Source of the DNA: a virus
Lineage: Duplodnaviria; Caudoviricetes
Reading direction: 5' to 3' (one strand)
Length of the DNA stretch: 64,000 nt
IMG/VR virus record: IMGVR_UViG_3300023235_001725
Below the pieces are notes generated by a model. The model had not been told where the DNA came from. It searched no databases and saw only the letters and a list, made by a program, of their open reading frames with translations. Made by a program: the position numbers and the translations under genes. This document shows, piece after piece, positions 2,561 to 20,595 of the stretch (the stretch's first letter is position 1; the number at the start of each line of letters is the position of its first letter).

Positions 2561-4704
2561 TAAATTATTCCTTTACAGGATGAGGTGATAAACAGGGGTA
2601 TGATGTCAAACCAAGAAGTGCAAAATGTTGTGATTCCCTTACAGGATGAGATGATAAACAGGGGAGGGAGCAACTTCAAATACCTACAAGCTGTTGTGAT
2701 TCCCTTGCAGAATGAGATGATAAACAGGTCTAACGATGGAATAACCACCTTAGGCGAAGTTGTGATTCCCTTGCAGAATGAGATGATAAACAGGTTTAAA
2801 AGTTGAATGCGCCCCGTGCATCCCGTTGTGATTCCCTTGCAGAATGAGATGATAAACAGGTGAGCATTATTCTCTAAACAAAATTTATCTCGAATAAATT
2901 TCAGCCTATTTCAGATTAAACAACAACAATGGAAAATGAAATCGACCGTCTAAATTATCTTTTAACAGCTGTAAACACAGAGAACACATTGAAAGGGCTT
3001 GCACTTGCTGAAATCACCAAAATCTGCTGTCAAAAGTCAAAGAATTTCAGAGATATAAAGCAAATCGAAGACATCCTTCTTAAACTAAAAAATAATCAGC
3101 AGAAATTCCGTTTTAAACAGGAGATAAAATATTTCAAACAGATGGCAGGTAGTTGTGATTCCCTTGCAGAATGAGATGATAAACAGGCGGATTACGATTA
3201 GCCACAGCACCCAACAGTTGTGATTCCCTTGCAGAATGAGATGATAAACAGGCACAGCCAAATAAAGAATTACCAAGATGGTGTTGTGATTCCCTTGCAG
3301 AATGAGATGATAAACAGGTACCAAAACAGAAACATATTTGCTTGCCATGTTGTGATTCCCTTGCAGAATGAGATGATAAACAGGAGGGAATTGATACATC
3401 AGAAAGCCTTTATGTTGTGATTCCCTTGCAGAATGAGATGATAAACAGGGGCAATCGCCTTGAATAATTTTGCTGTTCAGTTGTGATTCCCTTGCAGAAT
3501 GAGATGATAAACAGGAGACTATAATGAATACCGATTTGAGGAAGAGTTGTGATTCCCTTGCAGAATGAGATGATAAACAAGGCAAAGGTCGGGAGCTTGC
3601 AAGCAGATATAGTTGTGATTCCCTTGCAGAATGAGATGATAAACAGGACAAAGGATAAGAAGGGCGTGTAGCTATTAGTTGTGATTCCCTTGCAGAATGA
3701 GATGATAAACAGGCAAAGCAACATCGAATGGAAGCAAGAGAGTAGTTGTGATTCCCTTGCAGAATGAGATGATAAACAGGTTCACCTTCGTTTCGAGGTG
3801 GTTTTTGTCTGTTGTGATTCCCTTGCAGAATGAGATGATAAACAGGGAAGCTTTTGGAACTAATTCCGCTAATCGAGTTGTGATTCCCTTGCAGAATGAG
3901 ATGATAAACAGGGGAATCGAATTCCTTTAGTACGTTCCTTTTGTTGTGATTCCCTTGCAGAATGAGATGATAAACAGGTAGATTAAATCTTAGTCTTCAA
4001 GACCAATCGTTGTGATTCCCTTGCAGAATGAGATGATAAACAGGGACGGTATGCATTCAAAATATCATTGCGCTGTTGTGATTCCCTTGCAGAATGAGAT
4101 GATAAACAGGTAGATTAAATCTTAGTCTTCAAGACCAATCGTTGTGATTCCCTTGCAGAATGAGATGATAAACAGGGACGGTATGCATTCAAAATATCAT
4201 TACGCTGTTGTGATTCCCTTGCAGAATGAGATGATAAACAGGCTACTTCAACTTGACCCAAAAAGACATACAGTTGTGATTCCCTTGCAGAATGAGATGA
4301 TAAACAGGTGCAGTCCAATTCATGATAAACGCATTAAAGTTGTGATTCCCTTGCAGAATGAGATGATAAACAGGTCAATTTCATGTTGGGTGCTGTGACT
4401 AAAGGTTGTGATTCCCTTGCAGAATGAGATGATAAACAGGTTTATTTAAACAATGCAAAAAACAAACCAAGTTGTGATTCCCTTGCAGAATGAGATGATA
4501 AACAGGTGGACCACTCAACCCAAATAACCCGCGCATGTTGTGATTCCCTTGCAGAATGAGATGATAAACAGGTGCACAAAGCTTTAATTATCAAAGGTTC
4601 ACGTTGTGATTCCCTTGCAGAATGAGATGATAAACAGGTGTTTGAAGTTGGCGAACTTGATTCTAAGAGTTGTGATTCCCTTGCAGAATGAGATGATAAA
4701 CAGG
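2561..4704 (-). CRISPR. CRISPR array: 29 repeats of 36 nt (plus strand GTTGTGATTCCCTTGCAGAATGAGATGATAAACAGG), 27 spacers of 29-31 nt and one 291-nt interruption
   Basis: Repeats counted by hand from 2561 (degenerate) to 4669-4704. Variants at 2627 and 3546. The leftmost repeat has lost only its minus-strand 3' end, which suggests minus-strand transcription co-directional with the cas genes. Confidence 0.98.
2929..3174 (+). CDS. 81-aa ORF inside the CRISPR array, antisense to it, ending at a TGA in repeat 6
   Basis: ORF track; A-rich start context (attaaacaacaacaATG); no family recognised. Confidence 0.4.
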   Translation: MENEIDRLNYLLTAVNTENTLKGLALAEITKICCQKSKNFRDIKQIEDILLKLKNNQQKFRFKQEIKYFKQMAGSCDSLAE

Positions 4705-4790
4705 GTACCTGTGGCTAATGCGCTAATAAACAAGCAACAACCACATGTACTGGATGGAAAAAAGACGTCAAAGAGCGCTTGCACAAGGAG

Positions 4791-5507
4791 TCAGATGTAG
4801 AGTTTTGAGTTTGTAATCTCCATAACCATTCCAAACCCTATTCCTGTAGATTGTCCCAAACCATAGTCGTGAATAGCTTGAGCAATCTTTTTGTTGCAAT
4901 GTACAACAACGCTGCATACATTTGCTTTGTTCACACTGGTTTTACTTGGGGCTCCAGAAGAACTCATCAAAATATCTCTAACCTTATTGTGGTTTGATTT
5001 CTGAACTTCAATTCTAAAGCCGTCAAATTTTAAAGTGTTGTCAATGTTTGACAAACGTCTTTTTGTTTGTTCAGACAACTCCTCTTCAAACCCATCATCA
5101 TTTAGGGTGTGAAATTCATAACGGCCTCCATTTTTTTTCTTTAGCAAAATGCCAGTTTCAGTGGTTTTAAAAACAGTAAAACCATCATACAAGTCTTCTT
5201 GGATGAACTCAATGCCCGTCAGTTTCATTCCAAATCCAAAATCTTTATTTGCTCCTGCTCCTGCGAGAAGTTTATTTAAAAAGCTCTCGTCTCCAGAGGA
5301 TATAAACAAACTGCCTCCATGAGCGTACTCAATGGATGTTCCGCCTTCTGTAATCGTTCCTCCAATCATCCTAGAGATAACATAGTTAGAAGGTTGATTG
5401 TGATAGAGATTATCTTTTCCTAAGCATTTATGAATGTAACTCACAACGTGCTTAAGGTTATTTGGAACCAACTCCTTTGCGGAGCTAAATTTTAACTGTA
5501 TTCTCAT
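4791..5507 (-). CDS. cas6: CRISPR-associated endoribonuclease Cas6
   Basis: C-terminal glycine-rich loop YGLGQSTGIGFG; adjacent to the array; ATGA-coupled to the upstream gene. Confidence 0.88.
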   Translation of the reverse strand: MRIQLKFSSAKELVPNNLKHVVSYIHKCLGKDNLYHNQPSNYVISRMIGGTITEGGTSIEYAHGGSLFISSGDESFLNKLLAGAGANKDFGFGMKLTGIEFIQEDLYDGFTVFKTTETGILLKKKNGGRYEFHTLNDDGFEEELSEQTKRRLSNIDNTLKFDGFRIEVQKSNHNKVRDILMSSSGAPSKTSVNKANVCSVVVHCNKKIAQAIHDYGLGQSTGIGFGMVMEITNSKLYI

Positions 5508-6385
5508 GACTCTATTGTAAGTTTAGTGGATATATCTCCTACTCTATCATAACCCTCAATGCTTAGCCTGTTTCCCGATACCACTCTTTCAATCCAAACC
5601 AAGCCTCCATCCAATATAGTTGCCACACCAGCTGAGTTTTCAAGGACTTCTTTGTCTTCTTCATCAAGCGGCACAATAAGGGTTCCGCTCAAGCGAATCG
5701 TTTTATCTATGCCATTGGGAACAACCAGCATAAGTCCTTTTGCGATAGAGTCCTTAGCCATCTCCATAGGGTCGTTTTTATCAGTAGGAGTCTTATTTCT
5801 CAGCCAGTTAACGACACCCGTTTTTCCAACTTTACGTTCTCTAAAATGAGAGAGCAAAGCTTGTTTAGAGGCTGAGTTTAAAGATTGCTTAAAAATATCA
5901 GGCACATCTTCTACTGGAACTTTTCTAATATTTGAGTGGCCCGTTGCCTCTATGAGCATTGTGATGAAATCACCATAATGCTCTTTTAGGTAGGCTTCAA
6001 TCAAATCCCAAGTGAGGTTTGTTATTTTGGCGTTTGAGTTCCAAAAAGCTTTCCTTGTGCGGCATATCTCTTTAATTTCTCGAACATCCCCTTTTTTAGT
6101 AACCCAAGTGGGCACTTCAATCTTTAGGAAGCTGTTTTTTGCCTTCTCAATCAATCTATCCTGCTTCTGATAGACACAGGCCCCAAAAAAAGGGACTGGT
6201 CTTTCATTAAAAAGCACGTGCAAGACATTTGAAATCTGATGATGTGTTAAGTAGGACTCAAATTGAGGGAGCCCCTTTCGAATCTCACCTGCGTCTTTAT
6301 TTCCAAGAAACAATTTATCTTTCGTGTCTTTATGGTTACGAAACAAAACTGCATCTTTAAACTTCAAAACCATAAATTCTTTCAT
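5504..6385 (-). CDS. cas5: Cas5-like subunit resembling Cas5fv (type I-F2)
   Basis: Lies between cas7 and cas6. C-terminal RLSGTLIVPL...ENSAGVATILDGGLVWI resembles the Cas5fv C-terminus as I recall it. At 293 aa it is large for a Cas5. Confidence 0.65.
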   Translation of the reverse strand: MKEFMVLKFKDAVLFRNHKDTKDKLFLGNKDAGEIRKGLPQFESYLTHHQISNVLHVLFNERPVPFFGACVYQKQDRLIEKAKNSFLKIEVPTWVTKKGDVREIKEICRTRKAFWNSNAKITNLTWDLIEAYLKEHYGDFITMLIEATGHSNIRKVPVEDVPDIFKQSLNSASKQALLSHFRERKVGKTGVVNWLRNKTPTDKNDPMEMAKDSIAKGLMLVVPNGIDKTIRLSGTLIVPLDEEDKEVLENSAGVATILDGGLVWIERVVSGNRLSIEGYDRVGDISTKLTIES

Positions 6386-7464
6386 GCTGGGGTGGTTTCG
6401 GTTTTCTTTACTTTCTCTGCTTTTTGCTTTGCGGCTTTGGCTTTCTTTTCCACGCTATTCTTTTTTAAAGTTGCTCGTTCTTCTTCCGCGTACTTCTTTA
6501 ATTCTTCATGAAGTTTTTTTGCATCTCCAGTAACATCTTCCGTATATGCTTCAAACACTTCATACTGCAGAGCTTGAATATTTTCTATTGAATTGATTTC
6601 GACCCAACCCTCTTCGCTGTTAAACCTGTCAATCAAAGGATTGGAAACCAGTTTCACCATCAGCTTCTCTTTGCGTGCATAAGCACTGCTTCGACTGATG
6701 TCCAACGTAAGAAGCTTTTCTAAAAATACAGAAACTAATAAACGAACCTGGTCATCTGTGAATTTGAATCCACGCTCAGCAATGTTTACAGAACTTCCTC
6801 TCATTTGGAAAAATCCAAGCTCATTATCAAATGAGCCAAAGTGAATGTCGGCGTACTTTTTGAATAAATCAAAATGGTCGGGATTAAAACCATAACGTCC
6901 CATGATTTCGTCACAAGAGTAAAACTGAAGCTCTTTCAGGTTTATAGCACCTTGAGATGAATACTTAATCTTCCCAATTGTTTCTTTTTTGTAGATAGAA
7001 TTATCACTTTTTTCTTCGTCTGCTTCATAGCTGATTTTCTCACCAGACTTTGAATGGAATTCGAGACGCGAAAGAGCATCGCACGTTTGTTCGGCAGCTA
7101 CTAGTGTAATGGCTCCTTTTCTTTTTAACGTATCGTTTTTAATGGCATGCAAGTGCCCATTAAGAATGCTTTCTGGATGGGCAAGGTTTGCATAAAGTAA
7201 ATCTTTATTGTGTGTAAGCTTTGGTGTTTGAGACACTTTATCATACATCGCATGCTTCATGCAGGTAGGCGAAATAACTAATTTGTAACGAGGCTCTTTT
7301 CCATCGTTGTAAATGTTTCTCTTTGCATACATTACGTTGCTATGGTATGATTTTAAGAAAGGGAATTTTTCTCCAATATGGAACCGTTGCTCATTGCTAT
7401 CGTAATTAACAACGCCATTGCCTTCAATTTCAATTTTAAAAAGAATTGACTTTACTTTGCTCAT
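6382..7464 (-). CDS. cas7: Cas7 backbone subunit resembling Cas7fv (type I-F2)
   Basis: KSILFKIEIEGNGVVNY, LVISPTCMKHAMY, SIYKKETIGKIKYSSQGAINLKELQF and FTDDQVRLLV...LDISRSSAY parallel Cas7fv blocks recalled from memory. Confidence 0.8.
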   Translation of the reverse strand: MSKVKSILFKIEIEGNGVVNYDSNEQRFHIGEKFPFLKSYHSNVMYAKRNIYNDGKEPRYKLVISPTCMKHAMYDKVSQTPKLTHNKDLLYANLAHPESILNGHLHAIKNDTLKRKGAITLVAAEQTCDALSRLEFHSKSGEKISYEADEEKSDNSIYKKETIGKIKYSSQGAINLKELQFYSCDEIMGRYGFNPDHFDLFKKYADIHFGSFDNELGFFQMRGSSVNIAERGFKFTDDQVRLLVSVFLEKLLTLDISRSSAYARKEKLMVKLVSNPLIDRFNSEEGWVEINSIENIQALQYEVFEAYTEDVTGDAKKLHEELKKYAEEERATLKKNSVEKKAKAAKQKAEKVKKTETTPA

Positions 7465-7506: not shown

Positions 7507-9834
7507 TTACTCGTAAATTGGCTGGTCAAACTCTTCCAGTAAAGTTTTTTTAATATATCCGTAAATGTCATGATATTCCATATCCATCCTCGGATACGGC
7601 ATTGATTTGTATTTCGCCATTATACGCAATAATTCAAGATTTGTGCTATGCTTTGGAACTTTTAAAAATCTAGTGTAATCAAAAGCGCAATCTGGCTCAT
7701 CGTTAAGATGTTTAATTATCTTAAATACTTTTGCTAGTGCGTTGGAGTCTTCATGGAAGTCTTCGGGTATAGAATCATAAATAGGAGTTGATTTAGGCTG
7801 TGTCCATTCTTTTTTTGCCCATTTTTTAGCAGTAAAAAAGATTTCATTTCCTTTGCTTCTATAGCTAGTTTCTTGTATTTTATGGACTTCCGAGTTTTCA
7901 CTTTTAATCGTTAACCTATTAGGATAAATTTTCTCATGTAAATCCATGCGGCTTTGTCGATATTTTGTGTTTAACCAGATTCTTCTTAAGGCTTCATTTT
8001 CTTTACAATGTTTATTATACAAAGAATATAGGTTATCTAAAGTTGTTTCCCCTTGACTTTGTGTTAGAAAATTAAACCATAAGTCAGACAGTTCTCGTGA
8101 GTACATTGTTTCGCGGGCTCTATTCTCACTTCGTCCAGAATTATCTGAAGGGATTCGATATGTTAGAATTTCAGACTGGTCATCATAATCTCCCCACCTG
8201 TCGACACGGCCTACTCTTTGAAGAGTAGCTTCTGGAGACAGGCAACTTTCAATCAAATGCCTAAAAGAAACATCTAAAGATGCCTGTGCTATTGGGCTCG
8301 CTATTACGTGTTCTTTTTCAATATTTCTGTCGGATTGCTTTCCATAGTTTTGAAGAATAACGCTTAATCGCGCTTGATTGTCGTCGTCCTCAAATTTTCC
8401 ATGAAACAAAATAGTATCTTCATTGTGTTTGTGCTTATTTCTTTGACACTCAACTATAGAATTAGAGATAAAAAGAACAGGGCTTTTTTTACTTTCAGAT
8501 ATTCTAGAACGCCCCTCTTTTGTAGTGAGTTTGTATGATTTATTGTGGACAGCAGGAGCATGTTCAAATTTTCCAGGCAAATGGGCTGTTGAGTTGTCAA
8601 ATGAATCCCAATAAACTGATAAATCAAGTGGGGTTGCGGACAGCAGTAAAGAGCGTCCGTTTGTCATCTGATGTCTTACCTTCATTAGATTTATAAAACC
8701 AGCCAGTAAAGCCCCGTCCGACACTAGCTCATGATACTCATCAAATACAACATCTGCATCGGATACCATTAATAAATCAATATCGTTACAATGCTCTTTT
8801 GTCGGACGTAAAAAGTTATCTACGTTGGTTACAATGATATCGCTTGAAAACTTTATTCCTAAATCTGAATTTGAGGCCTGTTGTTTTCCAGCGTAATATA
8901 ATTCTACTGAAGTTTCAATTCCTGCATTTTTAAGCTCTCTTAAGATGTTGTGGTACACTGATTGTGCCACAGCATTTCTTGGACACACCCAAATAAGCCG
9001 TTTATTGTTGACAGTGCTCCAAAGTAAACCTAGAAGTGTTTTTCCGTATCCAGCAGGGGCGTTGATTTGAACAGTCTTAAACGAGGTCGTCCTAGATGCT
9101 AAAGCAACTTGTTGTGTCCATCTTTTTTCATGTCCAGGATATGGGCATTTAGTAAAAGCGTAACGGTGTTGTTGAATCAGTCGTTCATTTATAGTTTTTT
9201 TAATTTCATCAACTGTAAAATCTCCTAATTCACTAACTAAGTGGTCAGCTCTTACCACGCACATGCGAATAATCGTGTTGTCAACGTTGAGGTCGCTCGT
9301 CTCGTTAAAATCTCTAATATAGTAATGAGGGCTTGATGTTTCAGCTATTCTTGGCCTATCAAGGACTTGGCCAGGAAATAATTCTTCGACGAATTCAATC
9401 ATTCTATCGATAGAATTATCTTTCTTCTTCCGAACCCACTCAAGAATAGACGCATCTGTGTGCTTGCCCATTACATTGTTAATGCCGTGATGCCAGTATA
9501 CTGCTTCAGCAACTTGTCTTAGCTCCTCTGAGTCAAAGCTGATGTACATTCTTACAAATGCCCATCCCACTTCATTGTGCGAAAAAATAATGTCTTTTTT
9601 CTTTGTTTTAGTGGATTTACCATTTAAAGAGTTTCGGAGTAAAGTTTGAAACTCGGTTTCGGCTTTTCCAATATCATGAAGAAGCGCCGCTTTGCGGATA
9701 ACTGATATAAAATGTTTTTTTTCTGTATCTGAGGTAACTATAACTGAGTCGGCAATATATTCCGCAACCTCAGCAACCTTTCGACTGTGCTCAATCAGGG
9801 TTTCGCCAGTACTTTTTGCTAATAACTCATCCAT
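7507..9834 (-). CDS. cas3: Cas3 HD nuclease-helicase, stand-alone (no Cas2 fusion)
   Basis: HD domain (LIEH, LHDIGK, WHHG, ADH) plus SF2 motifs APAGYGKT, DEYH, SATP and QRVGRVDR. Confidence 0.93.
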   Translation of the reverse strand: MDELLAKSTGETLIEHSRKVAEVAEYIADSVIVTSDTEKKHFISVIRKAALLHDIGKAETEFQTLLRNSLNGKSTKTKKKDIIFSHNEVGWAFVRMYISFDSEELRQVAEAVYWHHGINNVMGKHTDASILEWVRKKKDNSIDRMIEFVEELFPGQVLDRPRIAETSSPHYYIRDFNETSDLNVDNTIIRMCVVRADHLVSELGDFTVDEIKKTINERLIQQHRYAFTKCPYPGHEKRWTQQVALASRTTSFKTVQINAPAGYGKTLLGLLWSTVNNKRLIWVCPRNAVAQSVYHNILRELKNAGIETSVELYYAGKQQASNSDLGIKFSSDIIVTNVDNFLRPTKEHCNDIDLLMVSDADVVFDEYHELVSDGALLAGFINLMKVRHQMTNGRSLLLSATPLDLSVYWDSFDNSTAHLPGKFEHAPAVHNKSYKLTTKEGRSRISESKKSPVLFISNSIVECQRNKHKHNEDTILFHGKFEDDDNQARLSVILQNYGKQSDRNIEKEHVIASPIAQASLDVSFRHLIESCLSPEATLQRVGRVDRWGDYDDQSEILTYRIPSDNSGRSENRARETMYSRELSDLWFNFLTQSQGETTLDNLYSLYNKHCKENEALRRIWLNTKYRQSRMDLHEKIYPNRLTIKSENSEVHKIQETSYRSKGNEIFFTAKKWAKKEWTQPKSTPIYDSIPEDFHEDSNALAKVFKIIKHLNDEPDCAFDYTRFLKVPKHSTNLELLRIMAKYKSMPYPRMDMEYHDIYGYIKKTLLEEFDQPIYE

Positions 9835-20451: not shown

Positions 20452-20523
20452 TCTACAAATGTAATCAATTTTACAAATATAAAAACTGTTCGAAGGGCGG
20501 CCTTTTTCTATCTGTAATTCAAG

Positions 20524-20595
20524 AGGGGCGTAGGGGGTTCGAACCCCTGACGTACAGGGTTAAAGCCTGATGTTCTACCTCTGAACTAACGCCCC
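20524..20595 (-). tRNA. tRNA with anticodon TTA (ochre-suppressor-like)
   Basis: GGGGCGT-TA-GTTC-AGAGGTA-GAAC-A-TCAGG-CTTTAAC-CCTGT-ACGTC-AGGGG-TTCGAAC-CCCCT-ACGCCCC-T; 7-nt loop with U33 and A37. Confidence 0.85.

Follow-up and report, generated by a model that had tools for sequence, protein, structure and literature searches.

Class 2-format CRISPR arrays beside a class 1 effector in a family of huge phages, with possible spacer supply by a host type II-C integrase

The window analysed here is a stretch of 64,000 nucleotides (nt) of phage DNA, IMG/VR record IMGVR_UViG_3300023235_001725. It carries a CRISPR array that adjoins a class 1 cas operon and has the format of class 2 arrays. The locus is best explained as a Cas8-less, type I-F2-like system that a phage carries, with a working array and no adaptation genes. 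Its spacers are probably loaded in trans by the Cas1–Cas2 integrase of a host type II-C system. Comparative analysis makes such loading the best explanation of the array, with a probability of roughly 0.55. An initial annotation of this DNA had proposed that the phage borrows host II-C Cas1–Cas2, and this proposal is now backed by a leader signature common to phage and II-C arrays. The borrowing itself is still something we infer.

The repeat of the array is GTTGTGATTCCCTTGCAGAATGAGATGATAAACAGG on the plus strand (36 nt) and CCTGTTTATCATCTCATTCTGCAAGGGAATCACAAC in the sense of the CRISPR RNA (crRNA). The spacer count of the initial annotation was correct: 27 spacers are of normal size (24 of 30 nt, two of 29 nt and one of 31 nt), and a 291-nt interruption takes the place of one more. 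Repeats start at 2561 (9 mismatches) and 2627 (2 mismatches), followed by 27 near-perfect copies, the last at 4669. Since the degenerate, oldest repeats lie at the low-coordinate end, the leader is placed at 4705–4790 beside cas6 and the array on the minus strand. Repeats of 36 nt with spacers of 30 nt (36+30) are the format of type II-C and type VI-B arrays, so the array is of class 2 format, as annotated. Type I-F arrays have 28-nt repeats and 32-nt spacers. Directly ahead of the leader, all on the minus strand, lie the four genes cas3, a cas7fv-like gene, one for a 293-aa protein, and cas6. The effector is of class 1, again as annotated: its Cas3 has HD and helicase domains and is accompanied by a Cas7fv-like protein and a Cas6 (Table 1).

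The 36+30 format is a trait of a whole phage family and is not peculiar to the window phage. The family was assembled from Cas7 homologs and their contexts. To enlarge it, IMG/VR was scanned with a Cas7 profile; this yielded 26 loci, the majority on contigs of 100–600 kb. One contig (L086) from a metagenome-assembled genome (MAG) was added. The resulting 12 lineages span Cas7 identities from 77% down to 25%. All 12 have 36-nt repeats at a 66-nt period. The repeat 3′ end is AATCACAAC in 11 lineages and GGGAGTCTCAAC in one, the majority end being AAGGGAATCACAAC, and the 5′ half differs among lineages. The 146 unique family spacers are mainly of 30 nt (84.9%), with smaller classes of 29 nt (11.0%) and 31 nt (2.1%), and none is common to two lineages. 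Family repeats contain a hairpin of 5 base pairs with a 5-nt loop that ends 6 nt before the repeat end (85% paired across lineages). The fold of a single repeat was not better than that of shuffled sequence.

The Cas6 homologs whose contexts were examined stand either in the phage-type operon or alone on a phage contig (two contexts). Neither a cellular I-B relative nor a Cas1–Cas2-bearing cellular relative with the same format was found among the Cas6 or Cas7 homologs. In the phage lineage L151 (12122–12740) a 15-nt duplication inside the repeat (TAAGGTAATCACAAC twice) gives 51-nt repeats and a period of about 81 nt. G004, a 597-kb phage record, has two array regions with the family repeat (565076–566859 and 595614–596490), about 30 kb apart. 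L232 (2495–3169) encodes a distant Cas6 homolog (30% identity) that stands alone by baseplate genes on a phage contig, with cas3 and cas7 not nearby.

We then asked which cells use this format. A scan of 185,579 species genomes for three copies of AATCACAAC at a 66-nt-type period found at least 120 genomic arrays with this end and period, in Bacteroidota, Kiritimatiellia/Lentisphaeria and Gammaproteobacteria. All are 36+30. Their cas neighbours were identified by clustering of flanking open reading frames (ORFs) and a PADLOC scan. Among the matches listed, Cas9, type II Cas1 and type II Cas2 are all encoded upstream in 53 loci, and some of the three in 65. These upstream cas9–cas1–cas2 genes have the same sense as the repeat read ...AATCACAAC. 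The only other cas neighbourhood among the matches listed is the phage-type operon of L086, and the remaining listed loci show the cas-distal flank only or reach a contig end. A II-C system in the MAG that carries L086 was considered and rejected; the Cas1 of that MAG adjoins a PrimPol gene and an array of 37-nt repeats.

An independent II-C sample was drawn through type II Cas1 (TIGR03639), which was present in 31 of 151 evenly drawn Bacteroidota genomes. It yielded 26 arrays, all with 30-nt spacers. Repeats are 36 nt in 15 of them and 44–48 nt in 11, and most end in CAA[AT][TC]CACAAC. For 1208 II-C spacers beside cas genes, 74.5% are 30 nt, 13.7% are 29 nt and 5.7% are 31 nt. The spacer-length spectra of II-C arrays and the phage family thus agree.

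The two kinds of array also agree in polarity. Where a II-C array has a degenerate repeat, it is at the cas-distal end. This places II-C integration at the end next to cas2, in the order leader, then xxTGT...AATCACAAC, and the phage arrays have the same polarity. The sense of the II-C crRNA follows from the trans-activating CRISPR RNA (tracrRNA). Five Bacteroidota II-C loci have a canonical tracrRNA on the antisense strand immediately upstream of cas9. From its anti-repeat, which equals the final 19–24 nt of the cas-sense repeat, this tracrRNA continues into TAAGG or TAAGGC, then hairpins and a T-run. This layout implies that the II-C crRNA starts GUUGUGAUU and is read toward the leader. The plus-strand start of the window repeat, GTTGTGATT, had been likened to Bacteroidota II-C repeats. 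It is indeed the crRNA-sense start of many II-C repeats beside cas9–cas1–cas2.

A different layout was seen in gammaproteobacterial and other II-C loci (L042, L050, L033, L094, L013, L047 and L049). Here an antisense transcript with a clear terminator lies just upstream of cas9 and starts with a copy of the first 21–26 nt of the cas-sense repeat. Such a start would pair with the 3′ rather than the 5′ part of a crRNA that begins GUUGUGAUU, unlike the canonical Bacteroidota tracrRNA.

The leaders also link phage and II-C arrays. We aligned leaders at the leader–repeat junction, and leaders were not used in choosing any set. The only invariant column of the phage leaders between −60 and −1 is a T at −13, found in 12 of 12 lineages. 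This column is also T in 26 of 26 leaders of the Cas1-based II-C sample and, in the cross-phylum set, in 45 of 60. A TTA 9–11 nt from the junction occurs in all 12 phage leaders, in 10 of 26 II-C leaders and in 34 of 60 from the cross-phylum set; elsewhere than at this offset, 0–6 phage leaders have it. Five phage leaders, the window's included, have a T-run at −57 to −59 and a sixth has one at −53. T-runs in this region are also present in most II-C leaders. The window leader has its T at −13 (an A on the plus strand, at 4717), its TTA at −14 to −12 and six consecutive T from −59 to −54 (4758–4763). The invariant T at −13 is a concrete and testable candidate for a II-C leader determinant.

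The initial annotation had noted a likeness to VI-B repeats. Reference VI-B arrays were taken from beside verified Cas13b genes (NF038190, E values of 7.7e-261 and 6.7e-246), and one of their repeats is GTTGGGACTGCTCTCATTTTGAAGGGTATTCACAAC. In a sample of VI-B loci drawn through Cas13b itself, the window repeat is identical to four distinct repeats at 20–23 of 36 positions, a level reached by at most 4 of 50,000 shuffles, and the similarity is thus real. Cas13b (NF038190) was found in 6 of 401 Flavobacteriales genomes, and the measurable neighbouring arrays are 36+30. Mean identity over 36 positions is 19.3 between the phage family and VI-B repeats, 17.7 between the family and II-C repeats of the 36-nt class, and 16.6 between VI-B and II-C repeats; the shuffled control gives 9.2 ± 1.9. 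By sequence comparison, phage, VI-B and II-C repeats form one superfamily, with the phage repeats slightly closer to VI-B. The format and the 3′ end of the window repeat fit VI-B, and its 5′ end is CCTG, without the 5′ GTTG of VI-B repeats. Cas13b is absent from the window. VI-B and phage arrays may have a common origin, as arrays that depend on adaptation by II-C systems.

The absence of cas1 and cas2, implied by the initial annotation, holds for the window, for 34 family loci and for near-complete relatives. Hidden Markov models (HMMs) built from II-C Cas1, Cas2 and Cas9 had no match in the six-frame translation of the window, nor in 538 kb of the 34 family loci (within 10 kb of each). As a control, the Cas1 HMM picks up, at 5.6e-26, a Cas1 that is not of type II. 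Five related huge-phage records, of which three are at least 98% complete, likewise have no match to Pfam Cas1 or Cas2. Outside the array, the window has no tracrRNA-like anti-repeat.

The spacers have targets in the same habitat. We compared contigs from four salt-lake runs with the array and found that non-array contigs from the same lake match single spacers with 0–2 mismatches (Table 1). Spacers 3319–3348 and 3582–3611 match one and the same contig, spacer 4639–4668 matches a 26.5-kb contig, and spacer 4375–4404 matches another non-array contig of depth about 717 in run X3. The flanks of these matches are not repeats, so the matches are protospacers. Five flanks on the GTTGTGATT side read ATAAAC, GAATAA, CGATAC, GGAATA and CGAAAA. 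On the other side of these five protospacers we found no motif, and the CC motif of type I-F was not seen. Searches elsewhere returned little. The array gave chance-level matches only against GenBank phages and repeat-to-repeat matches only against five huge-phage genomes. Three spacers of relatives matched nothing in IMG/VR except the array-bearing contigs themselves, and the 146 family spacers gave one imperfect self-match among the loci analysed, in L151. A separate observation concerns abundance. The contigs matched by spacers 3648–3677 and 4375–4404 have a depth of about 717 in run X3, where the phage has about 31, and about 11 in run X7, where the phage has about 80. In these two samples target and phage abundance move oppositely.

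These features suggest how the array could be filled and used. During infection, the II-C Cas1–Cas2 of the host, possibly with Cas9, would recognise the T at −13 and the T-run near −58 in the phage leader, together with the repeat ends xxTGT...AATCACAAC. The host integrase would insert 30-nt spacers at the cas6-proximal end. Judging from its anatomy, the array would be transcribed from leader to trailer, opposite to a II-C crRNA, and the phage Cas6 would cut beside the small hairpin near the repeat 3′ end. A 5′ handle of about 8 nt would remain after the cut; at the usual length of 8 nt it would be AUCACAAC. As the array is read in reverse, the spacer end on the side of the protospacer-adjacent motif (PAM), which faces the leader in II-C and VI-B arrays, would abut the 5′ handle. 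This is where a type I complex would need the PAM. The crRNAs would then guide Cas3 to co-occurring genetic elements. A sigma-70-like promoter match on the plus strand (2412–2454; TTGGGA, 17 nt, TATAAT) is aimed into the trailer end of the array, and if active it would yield transcripts in the II-C crRNA sense. Scanning the array region for sigma-70 promoters and terminators yielded no clear information.

Several points weigh against loading by a host II-C integrase. The host II-C system is an assumption of this reading. The leader-proximal half of the phage repeat differs from II-C repeats, and the T at −13 was compared with II-C leaders alone, with no leaders of other CRISPR types as a control. 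An A at +3 (T at −3 in crRNA sense) is present in five of five protospacer flanks, weak statistics from a set too small to separate a Cas9-type from a type I motif. Covariation of the Cas6 hairpin across lineages is weak. For this genome, of about 447 kb, the cas1/cas2 search covered 64 kb. Among near-identical phage contigs of different samples, arrays are identical in eight contigs of one lineage, and in seven contigs of another the array is the same save for one spacer and one cut contig end; in these near-identical phages no ongoing acquisition is seen. The duplication and the interruption in the window array point to recombination.

The last two points are what would be expected of frozen inheritance, in which the family captured, or descends from, a VI-B or II-C array and has since undergone only recombination, duplication and decay. 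The two-unit duplication and the 291-nt insertion would fit such a history, as would the blocky arrays of L127 and L149, whose repeats have diverged. We consider it unlikely. Frozen arrays would not readily account for 12 lineages without a common spacer or for contigs of the same lake that match spacers at 0–2 mismatches. In addition, the leader T at −13 is invariant down to 25% Cas7 identity, which suggests continuing selection for recognition by an integrase. That integrase could instead be the phage's own, encoded outside the window, or one of another kind. About 85% of the genome lies beyond the 64 kb searched and leaves room for such genes; the lack of Cas1 and Cas2 in the three relatives at least 98% complete and around the 34 family loci makes the chance slim.

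The initial annotation had also suggested that host Cas13b or Cas9 may take up the phage crRNAs or be jammed by them, and we found no support for this. The identity of the window repeat to VI-B repeats speaks for it, as do the VI-B-like ends of one lineage's repeat (L128, GTTGG...CACAAC) and a match of the plus strand to 14 of the first 17 nt of a common Bacteroidota II-C crRNA repeat, compared by eye. Nevertheless, the phage encodes a Cas6, a backbone subunit and a Cas3 of its own, its array is read opposite to a II-C crRNA, and the window contains no tracrRNA-like anti-repeat. The window repeat lacks the 5′ GTTG and starts CCTG, which makes a terminal GUUG/CAAC stem impossible, and the format is a trait of the whole family. 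We regard loading or jamming as quite improbable. Under convergence, Cas6 and Cascade would have imposed both the 36+30 format and the handle, and the likeness to II-C would be a coincidence. A spacer of 30 nt equals five 6-nt Cas7 segments, and the handle AUCACAAC shares 5 of 8 nt with AUUGAAAC, which we take to be the common class 1 handle and count in favour of convergence. This leaves unexplained the common T at −13, the T-run, the same minor class of 29-nt spacers and a repeat identity about 9 positions above that of shuffled sequence, and we find it barely credible.

If loading by a host II-C Cas1–Cas2 is correct, the phage is armed by the adaptation module of its host's Cas9 system, across CRISPR classes and across genomes. 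The reversed reading would convert the Cas9-side PAM end into the PAM side of a type I system. Adaptation in trans would be extended to a phage-encoded class 1 effector served by a host class 2 integrase, and the spacer supply of many Cas1-less phage CRISPR systems would be explained. The predicted hosts of these phages are Bacteroidota with II-C systems and 36-nt repeats. A tentative generalisation, at a little under even odds, is that the whole huge-phage class 1 family keeps arrays tuned to a host II-C integrase through the T at −13, a 36-nt repeat with the II-C end and 30-nt spacers.

Table 1. Features of the CRISPR locus in the window (positions of the 64,000-nt stretch)
Feature	Coordinates	Strand	Details
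CRISPR array	2561..4704	-	29 repeats, 36 nt each; 28 spacers; 66-nt period
Array interruption	2861..3151	.	291 nt, non-repeat; occupies the place of one 30-nt spacer
Spacer	3648..3677	-	Exact match to a non-array contig at depth ~717, run X3
Tandem duplication	3943..4206	-	Two repeat–spacer units; 3943-4074 vs 4075-4206, 99% identical
Spacer	4309..4338	-	Matches a non-array contig, 4.4-11 kb; same contig matches 4573-4602 and part of 4111-4140
Leader	4705..4790	-	86 nt, between the cas6 stop codon and the first repeat
cas6	4791..5507	-	238 aa; TIGR01877 62.3 bits (cut-off 58.65); PADLOC Cas6b 8.1e-31
293-aa gene, cas5fv position	5504..6385	-	Conserved gene order; without family match
cas7fv-like gene	6382..7464	-	Backbone subunit, 360 aa; profile matches; homologs carry PF28157 (Cas7fv-like)
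cas3	7507..9834	-	Stand-alone; HD nuclease and helicase domains; PADLOC Cas3fv profile positions 312-842 of 951

The Cas7fv-like protein matches NF040577 at E 7e-13 and 48.6 bits, below the cut-off of 200, and PADLOC Cas7fv at 1.1e-11. The operon position alone suggests that the 293-aa protein is the Cas5fv subunit. Cas3 lacks a fusion to Cas2, and the Cas3fv profile is covered only over the positions given in Table 1. The window Cas6 has no Cas6f match; its best matches are the general Cas6 family and Cas6b.

Two irregularities occur in the array. The 291-nt insert contains the start of a plus-strand 81-aa ORF (2929–3174) that extends into the next repeat. Contigs from three runs span 2825/2831–3181, which shows that the insert is real in the population. 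The duplicated units differ at a single base, in one spacer (ATTGCGCT versus ATTACGCT). A contig of run X1 that jumps from 2692 to 4669 is most likely an assembly collapse over the repeats and was not counted as a real deletion.

The window is phage DNA, with genes for tRNAs, for ribonucleotide reductase and a primase-helicase, and for further functions of phage replication. One tRNA (20523–20595) has the anticodon TTA and would read the UAA stop codon. The stretch is present in 20 salt-lake metagenome runs from 2017–2018. The longest contig that carries the window's Cas6 is 446,956 bases. The window has no counterpart in the GenBank phage set, and its repeat was found neither in IMG/VR nor in metagenome contigs of the Joint Genome Institute (JGI).

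Compared with II-C arrays of the 36-nt class in Bacteroidota, the phage array is the same in repeat length, spacer spectrum, repeat end (AATCACAAC, or GTTGTGATT in crRNA sense), the leader T at −13, the T-run near −58 and polarity. Unlike them, it adjoins no cas9, cas1, cas2 or tracrRNA, the middle and leader-proximal parts of its repeat differ, and it is presumably read the opposite way and cut by Cas6. The closest precedent for the proposed adaptation is the VI-B locus of Flavobacterium columnare (Hoikkala et al. 2021, PMC8092290), where acquisition depends on the II-C cas1. Like the phage system, it is an effector locus without cas1 and cas2, with 36-nt repeats and 30-nt spacers. Its repeats resemble II-C repeats mainly at the leader-far end (GTTGT in II-C sense), as does the phage repeat. 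The VI-B array is read from leader to trailer and the PAM end of its spacers faces the leader, the same arrangement as in the phage if the phage array reads with its cas genes. The II-C crRNA sense in that study agrees with the one derived here from tracrRNAs. Unlike in F. columnare, the recipient here is a class 1, Cas3-based DNA-targeting system that lies on a phage genome rather than the host chromosome, and its loading in trans is predicted from sequence. Other cases of adaptation in trans are cited in parts of the literature, namely III-B beside type I and IV-A3 beside I-E.

The effector is most like type I-F2 (I-Fv) of Shewanella putrefaciens CN-32 (PMC4937334). Both are Cas8-less, the phage backbone subunit being Cas7fv-like, and both have the gene order cas3, cas7, cas5-position gene, cas6. 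The phage system differs in that Cas3 is unfused to Cas2, Cas1 is absent, Cas6 is of the general/Cas6b kind rather than Cas6f, and the array is 36+30 instead of 28+32. The type I-F system of ICP1 (PMC10161043) is also phage-borne, but it has Cas1 and Cas2/3, and its crRNA is 60 nt with a 32-nt spacer. A PNAS 2023 paper on a 'compact type I-F in bacteriophage' was considered as a description of the window family and set aside, since it concerns ICP1. Our literature search found no published description of a class 1 effector on a class 2-format array. That phage systems without Cas1 draw on host proteins has, as a general idea, been published before (Al-Shayeb et al. 2020, PMC7162821). The huge-phage CRISPR systems of that study lack Cas1, Cas2 and Cas4 and, like the window system, have spacers against co-occurring elements. 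Host-like repeats are tied there to phages that also lack interference genes, and a class 1 effector on a class 2 array does not occur in that study, whereas the window phage pairs such an array with a Cas3-based effector of its own.

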